Source: Craspedostauros australis (lineage: Eukaryota). From it: DNA of 20,000 bases. The stretch is from the NCBI GenBank assembly GCA_030167865.1, contig JALAGF010003459.1, positions 55,533 through 75,532 of the forward strand. Direction: 5' to 3'. Shown piece by piece: positions 5,656-14,497 of the stretch. The translations under genes were made by a program, and so were the position numbers. The notes under the pieces are model-generated. The model saw only the letters and a list, made by a program, of their open reading frames with translations. It did no database searches and had not been told where the DNA came from. Each line of letters starts with the position of its first letter. The stretch's first letter is position 1.

Positions 5656-8600
5656 TCATGAAATGTCCGTCAGCACGGAATCCTCGTCACCATCATCCAC
5701 ATCTTCAGCATATCCACTCCAGTGGGTGCTTGGCCCTCCATCAACACTTTCCTTCGCCGTCGAAGTCTTTGTGCCGTTTGTTGTTGAGTTCCTACCTGAA
5801 ATCGTCGGCGCACCAGCATGTTCCGGGGAGTGTACAGTCGCTAAGTCAAAGTTGATTGACGTTTGATGCTGAGGCGTGAACTCAATCGTCTTCTCTCCAA
5901 AGATGCTATTCCTGGCGGATCTCTTGACCTGCTCATTGTTGATATAATTGCCACGTTTGGTGCGCAAGTCGTCACACTTGGCACCTGCACCCCAGGCCTG
6001 ATAGAACTCCATTGCTCGGGTGAAGTATTCACGTGCCAGATCATCGCCATCGATGCTGGACCTCAGTATGTGCTCGCCTGCCATCTCGCATGCCAATCCG
6101 GCCTCGTGGATCTGGCCGTTGCGCTGGGAGAGGTCGATTGTCTTGTCATAGCACTGACGGACGTAGGTTGGCATAGTTGTGCTGGAAGTGATGGACTTCG
6201 CCTCTGCTCTGAGGAGTAGGTATCGGTTCAGCACGATCTTGCCCTTGGTGTCGCATATCTTCTTGAGTTGTTTCTTGCATTTGCGGAGCAGGTTTGCGTA
6301 CTTGCGTTGATTTGTCTGCCAGTATCGGTTGGAGGCCATCAGTCCAACGAAGAGTGGGATCGTGGTTTGTGAAGTGAAGTCGTTGCCTACCATTTTGGCT
6401 GCCATCATTTTGTCATAAACGATCTCTGCAAGTTCATATCTGCCAAGGTAAGTGGCAAGGAACAGGTGCCTCCAGTAGACAGCGATGCCGGAGAGGTGGT
6501 TGACGTTGTCATGCCCATTCACGTTTGTGAAATTCTGCCAATCAATCGAGAGTGTACCTGCGATTTGCTTGGCGCTGTTGCTGTACTCTCTCGTGGTATG
6601 CTTATGCGAGCTGACCTTCAACGCTTTTTCTTGTTCCAAGACTGAATCGATGTTGGGCAACAGGGTCGCAAGAGGATAACCCTGGACGAAAGCGTAGACG
6701 ATGCTCCCAAAACGCCCCAAAACACCGACCTCGAAATTCCCCGCCGACATCGCTTCCATGCTCGCAGTCCGAAAGTCTTGCGCAATCTCCGAGGGCGACT
6801 TGTAGAATGGATCAATGAATGATGCTGCCATCAAATACACCGTCCCATTGGCGGTGCTGGGAGTGCTGGCCTTGTCAACAATAGCTTTTGCCAGCTCGAT
6901 GTATCTCCGAGCGCTCTTGGGATCTCCAAGGCTATTGTATACTGTCGCCAGGATGGCAAAGCCATAGCCTGACTCCCCGCGAAATCCTACGCGCCTCGTG
7001 TAGTTGATCATGCGCACCACCCCTAACAAGCACGATATCGTGTCGTTGCTGATGAAGCCGCGAGTTATGATGTTGTACAGCAGCAAGATCGATGCCACAT
7101 GTTTTGGATTTGTCACAATCGGGGTTCGTCGCAAGAATTCCTCATTGGAGACACGGCGGAAGTATGACCTCAGCGACATCATCTGGCGAGCAACATGAAG
7201 CAAGTACCCGCGCTTGGGATACACGCCACATAGCTGCGCGGCCTTCTCGCTCAGTCGCAGTGCTTGGGCGTGCTCGCCTTGATGGCCCAGAGCCTTTCCC
7301 ATTGTGGCGTATGTAGGAAGTCTGTCATCGATGGATGTGGCACGCTCCACAACTTCGTTGCCAATTGCGAAGCCTTGCTCATAGTTGCGCAGCAAGAGTT
7401 CGATGTCGCATTGACTGCGAAGCAATCGAAGCACCAAGTCGTAGTGGTCCTCCCAAGGATCGCCCTTCAGCTTGCGGAGGGCTGTCGATGCATGCCGGAG
7501 GTACGTCGCAGCAGGCGAAAGAGCGGCCATTTGCAGCGCATGCTCGCCCGTTTGAAGATTGCGCTGCAACGTTTCTAAATGATCCTTGCTGGCCACACAG
7601 TTCAGATGGTCCGTCGCTATGAACATGAAACTGGCGTCGTTGCCAGCCGAAGTGCGCGCACGAGTTGTGGCAGAAGAGTTCTGCAGACTACGACTGTGGC
7701 TGAGTGATGGATCTGTGCACAGCTCCCACAGACATCGCCCGATACGCAGCCGGAGCTTGGTGCGGAGTTCCCCAATCGCAACCAGTCCCCGGGCTGCCTC
7801 CTGAATGCGATCATGAGCGAAGCGGTAGGTGGTTCCGCCGATAGCATTGTGCAAGAGACCTTCGAGCACGGCTTGCTCCAGCAGCTCGGAAAGGTCGCTG
7901 CCGCGTTCGTTCGCAACAAGCGCAGGGCCGGAATGGGCACGGCTGACAGCACTTTCGATGATATCATCACTGGCGCGATTGTGGCCCTCTTCGTAGTCCA
8001 GCACGATCTGCAGCAAATCAGAATCGAACGATGATCTGATGTACGATGCGATGGCCAGCGCCTTCTGCAAGGCGACAGGCAAAGTCTTCATCTGGGATGA
8101 GATGAGACGGATGACGTCTCTTGGGTCGGTCGATGATGATGAACCGAAGTCTGAGACCCCGTCGGTGTCAAACTCGTCATCCAGCTCCCATTTGGACATG
8201 ATGCGGTTGTACTTGAGGATGGTCTTGCGCTCCATATCCTGGAGCAGCTGTACGGAATGGAAGATGTTGCCGTTGGTTTGTTTGTAGAGGTAGTCAGCGA
8301 TCTTGGCTGTGACAGCTGTGCCATCTTCGTCGTCGCCGTTCGCTACTGGTATGCCAGCATCGACGGTGCTGTGCCGGTGAAGGAGTTGGGTCAACCATAA
8401 GTGGAGCTGTTGTTTCGTGAAGTTCGCAATGTGGATGTTGGTGTACGGTGGTTTCAGAGTGCCGTCGTCATTATCAACTTCATCATCTTCACCGTCGTCG
8501 TTGCCGTCGTCCTGGTCAACGCACTGCGATGCATCATCTTGCGACTCATTCACCTGGGCTTGACGCATCTCACTCAGAAGCTTCATGAACGGGACCTGGG

Positions 8601-9750
8601 GATCCAGATCCAACAGCTCAGTTGGCGAGTGGGGATTGTAGTCTTGTCGGATCGTACCGATCCAAAGGAAGTTGGCATGATTCATCGTGGTGGACATGAG
8701 CTCCATGCTCTGCTGGGATGCCCATTGCAGATCATCGAGCACCAGTATCATTGGGGATGCCTTCGACGAGATGGCGGTCAAGAGCTGGGAGAAGGCGTAC
8801 TGGAATCTGTTCCAGATGGTGTCGTTGGCGGTGATCTGAGAGGAAACCGCTTCAGATCGTGACTGGGATTGGGACTTCGCATTTGGCGATTGGTCGCTGT
8901 TGTCGTTGTTGATGAGGATGGAGAGCGATGGCACGAAAGACAGCAGAAGGTTGATCTGTTCGGATGTCAACGTGCTTGCCTTCACCTGGGACCTCAGCCG
9001 CTGTAAATCCGTTGTGCCCGCACAAGCACTGGTGTTGGATTTGCGGCTCTTGGTTGCGAGGTGGTTGTCTGTATGCGGTGCGGTAGAAGTGGCCAGCGCA
9101 TTGCACCATCCTGAAAATGCCTGCGTGATGGCGGAGTAGGGATCGTTCTGCTGGTGCTGTTCGAACTTTCCCTTGAGGATACGAATGCCCATGCCGGCGG
9201 CCTTGTTCAGTTGTTTGTTGCGAATCTGCTTGCAAAAGGCGTCCACGAGATGTGACTTGCCGGTTCCGCTTCCACCCCAGACGAACGCGGCCGGGATGGA
9301 TGGTGAAGCGTCATTGTTGTTCGATCTAGCTTTGTGGGTACAGGCAGGGGTGGAAGAAGAAGATGATGATGACGCTGTTGATGGCAGGGTGGAAACAGTC
9401 GATGATGCCGGGGAAGTAACAGTGCCTTTGCGCACGATCTGATTGAAGACTTGATGTAGCGTTTTCAACTCCTGATCTCTACCGTAACAGCTGGTGGCAT
9501 TGCCATCTCCGTGGCCGTCCCCATGGCCGTTGCCGCGACCGCATTCATAGCTCTTCTTGAAGAAGATCTGGGGTGCGTCAACACTTCTTCGAACGTCATG
9601 GTGTCGATGATCATCTGTACGAGTATTGCTGGGCGATGCAGTCATGCCATGCATCGCAGAACGCGCCATGGTGGACTTGCCCTTTGATGACACCGATGAT
9701 GCCGCTGAGGCTGCATCGGACTTGTGGGCGCGGTTTGCAGTGCCTGTCAT
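5656..9750 (-). CDS. Large STAND-class P-loop NTPase (COG3899/AAA_16-type predicted ATPase) with C-terminal TPR-like helical region, 1364 aa
   Basis: Uninterrupted ORF from ATG to TGA. Motifs: YGRDQELKTL (GRxxE), Walker A GGSGTGKS (about 9253-9276), GKFEQ..PYSAITQAF, Walker B ILVLDDLQWAS (about 8715-8750), TNGNIF, YRFAHDRIQEAA (about 7793-7828) and C-terminal FYQAWGAGAK. These are hallmarks of the ATPase module of bacterial STK-AAA-GAF-HisK proteins. Confidence 0.9.
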   Translation of the reverse strand: MTGTANRAHKSDAASAASSVSSKGKSTMARSAMHGMTASPSNTRTDDHRHHDVRRSVDAPQIFFKKSYECGRGNGHGDGHGDGNATSCYGRDQELKTLHQVFNQIVRKGTVTSPASSTVSTLPSTASSSSSSSTPACTHKARSNNNDASPSIPAAFVWGGSGTGKSHLVDAFCKQIRNKQLNKAAGMGIRILKGKFEQHQQNDPYSAITQAFSGWCNALATSTAPHTDNHLATKSRKSNTSACAGTTDLQRLRSQVKASTLTSEQINLLLSFVPSLSILINNDNSDQSPNAKSQSQSRSEAVSSQITANDTIWNRFQYAFSQLLTAISSKASPMILVLDDLQWASQQSMELMSTTMNHANFLWIGTIRQDYNPHSPTELLDLDPQVPFMKLLSEMRQAQVNESQDDASQCVDQDDGNDDGEDDEVDNDDGTLKPPYTNIHIANFTKQQLHLWLTQLLHRHSTVDAGIPVANGDDEDGTAVTAKIADYLYKQTNGNIFHSVQLLQDMERKTILKYNRIMSKWELDDEFDTDGVSDFGSSSSTDPRDVIRLISSQMKTLPVALQKALAIASYIRSSFDSDLLQIVLDYEEGHNRASDDIIESAVSRAHSGPALVANERGSDLSELLEQAVLEGLLHNAIGGTTYRFAHDRIQEAARGLVAIGELRTKLRLRIGRCLWELCTDPSLSHSRSLQNSSATTRARTSAGNDASFMFIATDHLNCVASKDHLETLQRNLQTGEHALQMAALSPAATYLRHASTALRKLKGDPWEDHYDLVLRLLRSQCDIELLLRNYEQGFAIGNEVVERATSIDDRLPTYATMGKALGHQGEHAQALRLSEKAAQLCGVYPKRGYLLHVARQMMSLRSYFRRVSNEEFLRRTPIVTNPKHVASILLLYNIITRGFISNDTISCLLGVVRMINYTRRVGFRGESGYGFAILATVYNSLGDPKSARRYIELAKAIVDKASTPSTANGTVYLMAASFIDPFYKSPSEIAQDFRTASMEAMSAGNFEVGVLGRFGSIVYAFVQGYPLATLLPNIDSVLEQEKALKVSSHKHTTREYSNSAKQIAGTLSIDWQNFTNVNGHDNVNHLSGIAVYWRHLFLATYLGRYELAEIVYDKMMAAKMVGNDFTSQTTIPLFVGLMASNRYWQTNQRKYANLLRKCKKQLKKICDTKGKIVLNRYLLLRAEAKSITSSTTMPTYVRQCYDKTIDLSQRNGQIHEAGLACEMAGEHILRSSIDGDDLAREYFTRAMEFYQAWGAGAKCDDLRTKRGNYINNEQVKRSARNSIFGEKTIEFTPQHQTSINFDLATVHSPEHAGAPTISGRNSTTNGTKTSTAKESVDGGPSTHWSGYAEDVDDGDEDSVLTDIS

Positions 9751-11252: not shown

Positions 11253-12479
11253 ATGGCGAGTCAAAGGAACAAGGAGCGTAAGAAGTCCAAAAAGCGGCGA
11301 CTGAACCAGCCAAGCTCACAGACTCAAATCGATGGAGGAGACCAAGACGTCACAGGCGATCCGTCGACAGCATCCGCAAGCGTGGCCAAGCCATCGAAAT
11401 CCACATCAGGATCGTCTGATTCGCAGCAAGATGGCGGGGTCAAACCCCAACCTTCTGGTTCATCGCAGCAGGGTGAAACACATGGCGATCAATCGATTGA
11501 GAAGAAGAGGAAGGCCAAGAAGAGACGACGGAACGAGACGAAACGAGAGAATAAGAGCAAACCCATCCCATCGAGCCGAGGCGGCCCCAACGGCGGTTCT
11601 TCGGCGTCACCGTCGACATCGAAGTCACTGTCACAGCCACATCCAAAAGAATCACAATCGTCGTCAACAGCAACAGAAATAGACACAGCAAAACCGTCCG
11701 CCAAGGTGGAGCACGCATTCGTCACCGATGAAAGCGATCACTGCGAAACTCCGATGCAGGCATATCGCGACGCTCTGCCGTTGATCGACAAGCTCATTGC
11801 AGGGTTGAGCAAGACACGCAAAACCGTCACGGTGTATGATCCGTACTACTGCAATGGTGGGATCCAGACAAAGCTGGCGTCCTTGAGATTTGCCAACGTC
11901 ATCAACCAGAACCGTGACTTCTATGGAGACATTGCGGACGATACCGTGCCAGAGCATGATATCCTCGTGACGAATCCACCGTACTCTGGCGTGCACATTG
12001 AGCGGCTTCTCAAGTTCGCAATGTCGAGTGGCAAGCCGTTCCTCCTGCTGCTGCCGCACTTCGTATACACCAAGGAATACTACAGAGGCAGCATGCAAGG
12101 ACACGGCAGCAAGCAGATTTTCTTTCTGGTTCCGAAAGCGCGGTACTCCTACGTGCCACCGGCGTGGGCCTCGCACGCGGAAGGATCAACAGCGCTTGCT
12201 AAAGGCAAGACGCAAACGGCGCCCTTCCCAACCTTTTGGTACTGCCACGTTCCAACCAATGTTGGTATCGGCAAAGATTGGTTGCAGCGGACATTTGGGA
12301 GAAGCGGTGTGTACGACCGACATCGCAAGCTGCAGTACGCAAGCTGCGCACAGGATATCCCACGCGATTTCAAGGGAGAGTTTGACAAAACGAAAAAGCG
12401 GCCCAACAACAAGGCGCGCAAACGGGCTGCGGCAAGGCGAAGGAAAGAGCAAGAGCAAAAACAGAACGAACGAAGGTAG
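11253..12479 (+). CDS. Putative N6-adenine (amino) methyltransferase, phage/Dam-like motif set, with basic NLS-like N- and C-terminal extensions, about 408 aa
   Basis: The first ATG is at 11253 (the track starts at a TTG at 11130) and the stop is TAG at 12477-12479. Motifs in order: DHCETP (11736), VYDPYYCNGG (SAM-binding motif I-like, about 11832), NRDFY, DILVTNPPYS (motif IV, NPPY at 11973-11984) and KPFLLLLP. Basic clusters: KERKKSKKRR, KKRKAKKRRR, KKRPNNKARKRAAARRRK. Confidence 0.8.
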   Translation: MASQRNKERKKSKKRRLNQPSSQTQIDGGDQDVTGDPSTASASVAKPSKSTSGSSDSQQDGGVKPQPSGSSQQGETHGDQSIEKKRKAKKRRRNETKRENKSKPIPSSRGGPNGGSSASPSTSKSLSQPHPKESQSSSTATEIDTAKPSAKVEHAFVTDESDHCETPMQAYRDALPLIDKLIAGLSKTRKTVTVYDPYYCNGGIQTKLASLRFANVINQNRDFYGDIADDTVPEHDILVTNPPYSGVHIERLLKFAMSSGKPFLLLLPHFVYTKEYYRGSMQGHGSKQIFFLVPKARYSYVPPAWASHAEGSTALAKGKTQTAPFPTFWYCHVPTNVGIGKDWLQRTFGRSGVYDRHRKLQYASCAQDIPRDFKGEFDKTKKRPNNKARKRAAARRRKEQEQKQNERR

Positions 12480-12829: not shown

Positions 12830-14497
12830 TTAGCCACGCATGGCAAAGCACTTCGCGGCCAGCTGCACCTGGTCCTGCGAGGCCGGCAGCTCCAGCGCTG
12901 CTGTCATGAGCAGAGGAGGGACGAACGCGATGACCAAGTGGAAAGCGGAGTGTGACCAGCCACCGATGGGATACTTGGCGAAGAGCCATCCGCAGATGGC
13001 AAAGTTGCACCACAGCTTTGAGAACAAGAGGATATCGCCCCTGCGCAAGACCGGGATCGTGTATGCGAGGACGCTGATTCCGATCCGAATCTTGTTGGCA
13101 CGCGGACGCACCCTTTTCTTGAACTGCCGGAACATGCAGTCCAGGTTGAACAAGGCGTTGGCCAGGAAGAAATCAAGCCGCCCAGATGTGGCGTACGACA
13201 TGGAGGCGGAGGTCACGTGGATCATGGCCTGGTCCATGCGACGACTCCAATGATCGGTGCGCGCAAATCCTGGTGGCAATCGGTGCGCGTACTTCCAGTG
13301 GTAGATGATTGAGAACGGCGCTTGCACGATGATGCCAAATGCTGCGGCGAGAACCGGCAGCGGTGGCAGCGCGTAGAGATTGGGAAACCATGATGAATGG
13401 ACGCAACCGTATGTGTCGATAAACGGCATGTCGAGCGTGTCTGCCGCTGCTGCATGTGTCAGTGTTGGTGGCACGTCATTGTTGCCATCGGCGTACTTCA
13501 TGAGAAGGGATTTGGATAGCCAGGCGCCGGACACAAGGAAGTACAGGCAGAAGACGACGCTGGGGACGATTGTGATGGCGTTCATCCTCTCCTGAAGCGG
13601 CGTCATCTCACGACCTGCCATGTATGCAGCCACATCGACGTCCGAGATGAGCTGAGATTTGGCGAACGTGACCAGTGAGTCGCCGGATTCCGGCGATGAT
13701 GAGGCGCTCGTGTCCGAAGATGCTGCTTTGCTGATGTTCAGGTCCTCGTCGTCATCCTTGCTGCAGTCAGTTGCATGACGACCCGGAAACCGCGGGCTGA
13801 GGAGCATACCAGCCTCATGTGTGCTGCTACGATCCGCTGCGAGGGGCAAGGTTTCCTCGTTTCCTGATGACGACAATGCTGGTGGTTTGTCCCGCTCTGA
13901 ACCAATCTCAACCTGTGAAGTCAGCGCTGATGATGAAGCGAATGCGATGTTGCTGTTGATTTGGGCGCTGGTACGTTGGGGCGCTCGCTCTGTACCAGGG
14001 CTACTCATCGTGCCTCGGAGACCGCCGTGTCTGCCTGCTCCTTGTTCGATCATCTCCAACTGCACGGACTCGCTTCTGTCAAACTGATGGACCGGCAACC
14101 GTGCCACCAGTGGTGTCACCATCGATACCGACCTTCGTCCTGGACGACGATGCGGCACACTCCTCACGCATGCGTGGACATTGGCAATCGGGTGATTGCT
14201 GGTGTCCCTCGACGTTGCATTGCTGGCGATGGTCATCGCAGCCAAATCAGGAGCAGAAGTTGGAGCGGCGAGGGCGCTTCCGGCCGCACCGGGACCCGCA
14301 AAACCCATCGCCCCGATGGAAGTTGGAGTGACATCGCTCACCCCTTGTCGTGCCAAGAGGCGCTCATGTTCGTGTCCATGTTCATTCTCGTATTCGTTGT
14401 GTTGATCTTGAGTGGACGAGGCATCGACATGCTCGTCGGTCGTATTGCGTGCGCGATATTGCAGTGGCCGCGATAGGTTCATCAAGAATGATGCCAT
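12830..14497 (-). CDS. PAQR/haemolysin-III-like (CREST superfamily) multi-pass membrane protein with a long disordered N-terminus, 555 aa
   Basis: Uninterrupted ORF from ATG to TAA. The C-terminal ~255 aa are hydrophobic and carry ERMNAIT (ExxNxxT), SIIYH (SxxxH, 13298-13312), RRMDQAMI (conserved Asp) and SHSAFH (HxxxH, 12938-12952), the signature motifs of CREST/PAQR proteins. Confidence 0.8.
   Translation of the reverse strand: MASFLMNLSRPLQYRARNTTDEHVDASSTQDQHNEYENEHGHEHERLLARQGVSDVTPTSIGAMGFAGPGAAGSALAAPTSAPDLAAMTIASNATSRDTSNHPIANVHACVRSVPHRRPGRRSVSMVTPLVARLPVHQFDRSESVQLEMIEQGAGRHGGLRGTMSSPGTERAPQRTSAQINSNIAFASSSALTSQVEIGSERDKPPALSSSGNEETLPLAADRSSTHEAGMLLSPRFPGRHATDCSKDDDEDLNISKAASSDTSASSSPESGDSLVTFAKSQLISDVDVAAYMAGREMTPLQERMNAITIVPSVVFCLYFLVSGAWLSKSLLMKYADGNNDVPPTLTHAAAADTLDMPFIDTYGCVHSSWFPNLYALPPLPVLAAAFGIIVQAPFSIIYHWKYAHRLPPGFARTDHWSRRMDQAMIHVTSASMSYATSGRLDFFLANALFNLDCMFRQFKKRVRPRANKIRIGISVLAYTIPVLRRGDILLFSKLWCNFAICGWLFAKYPIGGWSHSAFHLVIAFVPPLLMTAALELPASQDQVQLAAKCFAMRG

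Follow-up and report, generated by a model that had tools for sequence, protein, structure and literature searches.

The closest described relatives of the gene analysed here form Group-2 clade 3 of the N6-adenine methyltransferases, which is typified by CHLREDRAFT_205675 and was defined by Iyer, Zhang and Aravind in 2016 (PMC4738411; here and below, papers given by PMC number are cited for their accessible parts). Members are described as carrying a TP motif ahead of strand 1, lacking a well-defined strand 3 and usually occurring as two active copies. CCCH, KH and DUF501 fusions are found among the published members. The KH or CCCH fusions are occasional, and from them the authors predicted RNA methylation (PMC4738411). 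Nine diatom genes are listed: five from Thalassiosira pseudonana, two from Thalassiosira oceanica and two from Phaeodactylum tricornutum, PHATRDRAFT_41248 and PHATRDRAFT_36383 (PMC4738411).

Here we describe a gene in a 20,000-nt stretch of the Craspedostauros australis genome (contig JALAGF010003459.1, positions 55,533 to 75,532), which we call the window. A first-pass annotation had presented it as coming from an understudied eukaryotic clade. The gene is not new in kind, as its methylase clade was named in 2016 with diatom members on the list (PMC4738411). Because that definition already included diatoms and an RNA prediction, we regard the gene as an inherited member of a named family. It is an ordinary member of this uncharacterised family, not a new family. 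Our literature search, which covered the text of mainly open-access papers, found no experiment on the clade, and within the same scope six gene identifiers occurred only in the 2016 paper (PMC4738411).

The gene and its predicted fold

The frame at 11253-12479 of the forward strand runs without an internal stop from the first in-frame ATG to a TAG and encodes 408 aa; a TTG lies upstream of the predicted start. The ordered motifs, three K/R clusters and putatively disordered N-terminus of ~150 aa that had been noticed earlier are all present in it. The features are as follows.

11253..12479, + strand: single-exon open reading frame of 408 aa, predicted Group-2 clade-3 (CHLREDRAFT_205675-like) N6-adenine methyltransferase of diatom subfamily A
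11253..11708, + strand: low-complexity N-terminal region by composition (aa 1-152), with two K/R clusters, sequence not conserved
11265..11306, + strand: K/R cluster 1 (aa 5-18), candidate nuclear/nucleolar signal
11496..11546, + strand: K/R cluster 2 (aa 82-98), candidate nuclear/nucleolar signal
11709..12254, + strand: Rossmann amino-methyltransferase core without strand 3 (aa 153-334), from the AlphaFold2 model and fold searches
11736-11753, + strand: DHCETP (from aa 162), the Group-2 TP motif preceding the first helix
11835-11861, + strand: YDPYYCNGG (from aa 195), end of strand 1 and loop, putative SAM-binding position judged from the fold
11916-11924, + strand: DFY (from aa 222), by motif search of the protein
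11967-11987, + strand: VTNPPYS (from aa 239), by motif search
11973..11984, + strand: NPPY catalytic motif (aa 241-244), straight after strand 4, mechanism as given in PMC4738411
12033-12056, + strand: KPFLLLLP (from aa 261), by motif search
12231-12245, + strand: TFWYC (from aa 327), by motif search
12255..12476, + strand: C-terminal extension with an extra strand, the conserved basic stretch GEFD..KKRPN..ARKR and a helix end (K/R cluster 3), candidate nucleic-acid-binding arm

Each K/R cluster has 7 or more basic residues in a stretch of 10; the three begin at aa 5, 82 and 389. Residues 1-152 consist of 53% S/T/Q/G/P and 13% hydrophobic residues, a composition that suggests disorder. The conserved part needs no intron, as homologue matches span 92-100% of aa 150-400. 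No Rfam match was found within the window. RNA came from one run, X1 (share 0.06), whose contig spans 12660-12800 only and thus lies outside the methylase gene.

Residues 150-396 were modelled with AlphaFold2 from 103 sequences (pLDDT 90.9, pTM 0.88). In the model the TP motif is followed by a helix, strand 1 (ending at D196), strand 2, a short helix and strand 4; then come NPPY, strands 5-7, one extra strand and the basic C-terminal helix. T166-P167 (model positions 17-18), 93% conserved in 121 sequences, immediately precede the helix at 19-35. Between the strands at 66-68 and 88-91 there is no strand of three or more residues, at a pLDDT of at least 90, and NPPY occupies positions 92-95, directly after the second of these strands.

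A structure search with VIA-align against 48,161 chains gave its highest scores to Rossmann methyltransferases, which lie within about one Z unit of each other: lmo1582 (Z 10.8, rmsd 3.4, 164 aligned), METTL5 (Z 10.6, rmsd 3.1, 149 aligned), PH1948 (10.5), DIMT1 (10.1), a type I M subunit (9.9) and M.TaqI (9.8), with Mtq2 (8.3) and TrmN (8.0) further down. Foldseek ranked RlmJ first (E = 7.8e-4). The first-pass annotation had called the protein a SAM-dependent amino-methyltransferase. The Rossmann core and the NPPY motif after strand 4 of the model, together with the fold searches, settle this class at the level of a predicted structure. Fold similarity in the model does not separate RNA from DNA enzymes.

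At the sequence level phmmer gave no PDB match at E≤10, and a profile search of the PDB gave two type I M subunits only, at E about 1, none significant. No Pfam family reached its cut-off with the window protein (PF13651, E = 0.064), and the family is without a Pfam model or a solved structure. Thus, phmmer, profile and Pfam searches revealed no orthology to a characterised rRNA or protein methyltransferase. METTL5, DIMT1/KsgA, RlmJ, METTL16 and ZCCHC4 share the Rossmann amino-methyltransferase fold with the window protein at 7-16% identity in structural alignments. An orthologue of METTL5, ZCCHC4 or METTL16 was rejected, as there was no PDB sequence match and structural identity was 12% for METTL5 and 16% for ZCCHC4.

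Family membership and paralogues

A search with aa 150-400 identified 351 of 768 candidates as homologues at E≤0.001. In 121 aligned sequences D196, P197, C200, G202, D236, T240-P243, S245, H248 and P268 are conserved at ~100% (rounded), and all 121 carry NPPY or NPPF. The motif pattern is therefore not a matter of chance. Among near-full cores, NPPY/F is present in 362 of 387. The best 120 matches include named diatom relatives from Cylindrotheca, Pseudo-nitzschia, Seminavis, Thalassiosira and Chaetoceros (46-57% identity) and one from the labyrinthulid Hondaea (44%). As had been predicted for the gene itself, the source names of relatives are hypothetical, unknown or uncharacterized only. 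When 1.84 billion representatives were searched with a profile, 2,577 matched at E≤0.001, and 1,051 of these reached E≤1e-30, so that the family comprises at least 1,051 clusters at the latter threshold, counted among 50%-identity representatives.

The basic segments are also widespread. Among the same 120 matches, 87 of the 100 with an N-terminal part of at least 40 aa have a K/R cluster (7 in 10), and 114 of the 117 with a long C-terminal part have a basic C-terminal tail. A KRPN..R motif is common to subfamilies A and B, including the paralogue L003. As such tails are usual and the motif is shared by A and B, K/R cluster 3 is a conserved element and not only a candidate import signal.

The window protein almost certainly belongs to Group-2 clade 3. 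It has the TP motif, no strand 3 and an intact [DNSH]PP[YFW] closing strand 4, and the genome holds at least two active-looking copies. Judged by eye and unscored, the published clade-3 rows have the same motif blocks in the same order and spacing, as in the Ostreococcus row DHCETP..IYDPYYCEG..GF..VYNRNEDFY..P.FDVLVTNPPYSGDH..KPWLLLLPNFV.RKSYY (PMC4738411); among diatoms, the comparison covered the rows up to THAPSDRAFT_9806. DHCETP occurs at least 13 times in the accessible supplement text. A cluster look-up of ten proteins tied none of them to an accession on the published list. The Pfam scan found no CCCH or KH fusion in the window protein. Such a fusion is not required for membership, because most published members lack one (PMC4738411), and apart from this the window copy shows no difference in kind from the clade, sharing its motif string, its several copies per genome and, likewise, mobile-element relatives beside a C5 methylase. 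Its stramenopile subfamily is distinguished by a PPxW..GS..KGK insert and a GEFD..KKRPN tail.

Several other methylases were set apart. MT-A70/METTL3/AMT1/METTL4 were rejected since the motif order is unpermuted (strand 1 and the SAM loop come before NPPY), there is no DPPW-type motif and PF05063 does not match. Group-2 clades 1 and 2 resemble the protein in having TP ahead of the first helix, DP on strand 1, NPP[FY] and a reduced strand 3, whereas the window protein lacks the [D/N]G before strand 4 and any PWWP, ZfCW, ParB-HTH or WW domain. PCIF1 (clade 1), whose PF12237 domain usually comes together with WW, was excluded as PF12237 matched neither the window protein nor 103 relatives, and chlorophyte-type Dam (clade 2) as DFY..P..D stands where [D/N]G is expected, with no PWWP, ZfCW or ParB-HTH match in Pfam. 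In Group 3 Dam a winged-HTH insert follows the second strand-helix unit (PMC4738411). T4/E. coli Dam was rejected, since strands 2 and 4 lie ~20 residues apart here and no such insert is present. METTL16 (one locus, E = 6e-51) and PCIF1 (two loci, L006 = C5219 and L007 = C4023, both above the Pfam cut-off) are found elsewhere in the genome; being separate genes, they show that the window protein is neither of the two. Searches of the genome with PF05063 (MT-A70) gave no candidates, and PF10237 likewise gave none, with no positive control matched. The Nannochloropsis ‘6mA methylase’ NO08G00280 was considered as a tested clade member and rejected, being an N6AMT1 homologue (PMC10943562).

The genome holds three matches to the family, each of them free of internal stops: the window gene, L002 (43% identity) and L003 (40%). 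All three keep NPPY, DPY, the TP/TS/SP motif and the D-F/C-Y motif. For a FastTree phylogeny we used 134 core sequences, of which 24 were chosen and 110 were a random sample of the remaining 339; the alignment had 177 columns, and we chose a virophage protein as the root. The relative P0098 is outside this tree. The window protein groups with proteins from Seminavis, Thalassiosira, Pseudo-nitzschia, Cylindrotheca and Chaetoceros (33 sequences, support 0.988), and this group is nested in one of 52 (0.918) that includes Hondaea. Second copies from Seminavis, Pseudo-nitzschia and Cylindrotheca join L003 in a separate clade of 27 (0.969); L002 belongs to a third, of five sequences (0.996). Read from these sequences, the duplications predate the diatom genera named, and the gene was inherited rather than recently gained. 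L003 and the Chlamydomonas prototype have YNDHFETS in common, and by eye L003 looks closer to this prototype. Recent transfer or contamination is ruled out by the clade of diatom orthologues and by the ordinary host neighbours, namely a MatE transporter, an AAA_16/TPR protein, a membrane protein and a zinc dehydrogenase, with no mobile context.

Some further observations concern these loci. At L002:238-2139 a K/R-rich 5′ exon, from 238 to about 855, seems to end at a GT 550-600 bases upstream of the catalytic exon, which would be a long intron for a diatom. L003:2589-3509 (− strand) lies tail to tail with a neighbouring gene whose product presumably resembles the C-terminus of a DEAH-box splicing helicase. 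In the window, 12830-14497 (− strand) holds a 555-aa frame with no Pfam match, a long low-complexity N-terminus and a multi-pass C-terminal part; the X1 contig at 12660-12800 is at its 3′ end. The motifs S..YH, D..MIH and HS.FH in this C-terminal part recall the CREST (PAQR/ceramidase/HlyIII) membrane hydrolases. At 5656-9750 (− strand) there is a STAND-like 1364-aa single-frame protein with an AAA_16 ATPase (E = 1.5e-20) and weak TPR matches.

Viral and mobile-element relatives

The first-pass annotation had suggested kinship with small phage N6-adenine methyltransferases rather than with MT-A70 enzymes, and this was borne out. The profile phrog_799 (DNA methyltransferase) matches the window protein at E = 2.9e-6 and also all five relatives tested. 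In BFVD the top-ranking models belong to phage proteins 136-211 aa long, and some of these are named adenine methylases. A virophage relative of 165 aa, P0252, aligns with an hhalign probability of 99.3 (E = 3e-20, 28% identity); it differs from the window protein in having neither the basic tails nor the C-terminal extension. With the small phage and virophage adenine methylases the protein shares the core D..ET, YDPYYC.G, G[YF].NV...DFY, NPP[FY]S and KPF.L..P. The phage methylases compared were phrog_799 and those in the neighbourhood of EcoRI_methylase (PF13651) and Dam (PF05869). In the ESM Atlas a 92%-viral cluster at 0.95 lies between two eukaryotic clusters.

The virophage contig IMGVR_UViG_3300017770_000391 (L004:620-6240) carries Sputnik-type major and minor capsid genes. 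Three genes stand there in tandem: a C5-methylase-like gene, for which PF00145 scored just below cut-off, the minimal clade-3 adenine methylase directly behind it, and the gene for the small subunit of a ribonucleotide reductase. A second contig, L012, is a near copy. This arrangement parallels the bacterial clade-3 cognates, which are described as paired with a C5 methylase and located in conjugative elements (PMC4738411). A tblastn search of 50,697 GenBank phage records gave no match, and IMG/VR gave one relative among 26 pattern matches and two loci among five with the virophage protein as query. In a search for shorter forms, 51 of 59 candidates were retained; by identity and the few names they look like eukaryotic fragments. 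The gene descends from viral and bacterial DNA methylases.

Candidate substrates and mechanism

We propose that the protein is probably an inherited SAM-dependent clade-3 N6-adenine methyltransferase that is active on RNA in the nucleus or nucleolus. The first-pass annotation had left open a writer of 6mA/m6A or 4mC. Of these, m6A on RNA is favoured, genomic 6mA is less likely, and 4mC is disfavoured because the catalytic motif begins with Asn and not with the Ser of N4C enzymes (PMC4738411). In a survey of 18 species genomic 6mA tracked AMT1, and in AMT1-less species it was a uniform background; Phaeodactylum ‘exclusively harbored 5mC’ (PMC12695648). As this diatom has two listed clade-3 members yet 5mC only, a genomic 6mA writer is less likely. 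Together with the CCCH fingers found in a few relatives, this makes RNA likelier than DNA. One of these, P0098, has an N-terminal CCCH finger, is 45% identical and belongs to the window's own subfamily by its PPxW and GE[FL]D..RP signature. P0150 has a CCCH finger above the Pfam cut-off, P0155 a Nab2-type finger below it and P0183 a zf-met finger. RNA-finger fusions are rare, however (3 of 123, 1 of 103 and 0 of 116 proteins, the 123 being the new relatives among 150 listed from the profile search), and the window protein itself has no RNA-binding domain. PHD, chromo, PWWP and AT-hook families matched none of the same 342 proteins.

Against RNA, the ancestral job may have been kept, that is, methylation of DNA adenine at a low level or in special DNA such as single-stranded DNA, repeats, rDNA or incoming viral DNA, which the nanopore survey would read as background. 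Outside eukaryotes, the closest relatives are DNA methylases by annotation or by placement. This descent, with the phrog_799 match, the small phage adenine methylases among the viral models, the virophage gene directly behind a C5-methylase-like gene and the cognates in conjugative elements, speaks for such a role. So do the SAP domain of an Aureococcus member (PMC4738411) and the Fpg glycosylase of P0145; the latter may stem from a merged gene model. Low 6mA has moreover been reported in Nannochloropsis (PMC10943562) and Microchloropsis (PMC12019312), a lineage that holds a clade-3 gene (PMC4738411), although it was assigned there to N6AMT1. Rare 6mA sites could have been overlooked by the nanopore survey. 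With 6mA following AMT1 and none above background in Phaeodactylum despite two members (PMC12695648), and with CCCH/KH fusions but no chromatin reader among the 342 scans, we regard a DNA substrate as rather unlikely. P0145 itself is an 815-aa protein with an SDE2-like N-terminal piece and the Fpg DNA glycosylase at its C-terminus.

Within RNA, the reading in which clade 3 is a METTL3-independent mRNA m6A writer, derived from a virus or plasmid DNA methylase in protists without MT-A70, is distinctly unlikely, and so is mRNA adenine as the substrate of this protein. It would fit the lack of PF05063 candidates in a genome where METTL16 and PCIF1 were detected, the naming of Phaeodactylum under only PCIF1 and clade 3 among the methylases in the accessible supplement (PMC4738411), and m6A in Phaeodactylum poly(A) RNA by ELISA (PMC12024952). 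It would also fit Trypanosoma, which is reported to have no known m6A writer (PMC12905994) and is represented among the listed clade-3 species by T. cruzi, T. rangeli and T. grayi (PMC4738411). Yet the PF05063 blank is weak, since PF10237 was blank too, and METTL16 or PCIF1 could account for the ELISA signal. For Cylindrotheca closterium no MTA transcript is reported, but MTA-like mapping hits were obtained in a related Cylindrotheca genome (PMC11312118), and T. brucei is not among the clade-3 species in the accessible list. Methylation of another RNA amino group, N2 of guanine or N4 of cytosine, is improbable. NPPY is present in m2G enzymes too, Trm14 and TrmN are among the fold matches, and PMC4738411 places all such enzymes in one clade; against this, the motif has Asn where N4C enzymes have Ser (PMC4738411), Trm14/TrmN rank lower and the non-eukaryotic sequence-level relatives are all adenine-methylase-like. 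About as improbable is a protein methyltransferase of the HemK/Mtq2 kind with a glutamine or lysine acceptor. NPPY is the HemK motif (PMC4738411) and Mtq2 is a fold match, but the window protein and 103 relatives had no MTS or HemK-type Pfam match, and descent from mobile-element DNA methylases, the conserved basic arm and the RNA-finger fusions all speak otherwise. Pairing of members (PMC4738411) raised a METTL3-METTL14-like dimer, and Seminavis, Pseudo-nitzschia and Cylindrotheca have retained both subfamilies A and B. That one paralogue is an inactive METTL14-like scaffold is nevertheless very improbable, with the motifs intact in all three paralogues and both copies described as usually active in the accessible supplement (PMC4738411). 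A complex prediction for the window protein and L003, made without alignments, scored 0.00 and 0.00 and gives no answer either way.

The preferred reading, an RNA adenine methyltransferase, suggests a mechanism by analogy. In related enzymes the base stacks on the aromatic residue of the motif, with its amino group bonded to the Asn and the Pro-Pro carbonyl (PMC4738411). Here the target adenine would stack on Tyr244, with Asn241 and the Pro-Pro carbonyl binding its amino group, and would accept the methyl from SAM in a single SN2 step; the Asn would be positioned by a residue in the N-terminal helix region. SAM may be held by D196 and the PYYCNGG loop, N218 and D222-F223. The RNA backbone could be gripped by the basic KKRPN..ARKR helix and by the loop that links strands 6 and 7 (R297-Y298..PPxW..KGK), which together would replace the CCCH or KH domain of some relatives, and the K/R tails would import the protein and retain it in the nucleus or nucleolus. 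By analogy with METTL5, DIMT1/KsgA, RlmJ, METTL16 and ZCCHC4, the protein probably works on a fixed RNA site. The likeliest target would be a structured RNA (rRNA, snRNA or other ribonucleoprotein RNA), modified at one or a few fixed adenosines, with mRNA less likely, and we make this narrower assignment tentatively; the paralogues may act at different sites. ZCCHC4 is reported as confined to Amorphea (PMC8868631), which would leave room in diatoms for another large-subunit rRNA writer.

Taken together, the gene is one more beside the nine listed diatom genes, and its interest lies in the large family to which it belongs. Diatoms suit the question of the substrate, as Phaeodactylum can be edited, carries two of the listed genes and lacks genomic 6mA. 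If the substrate is RNA, the family would represent a further switch from a mobile-element DNA methylase to an RNA writer, and if it is mRNA, a writer would have been supplied where METTL3 seems to be missing.
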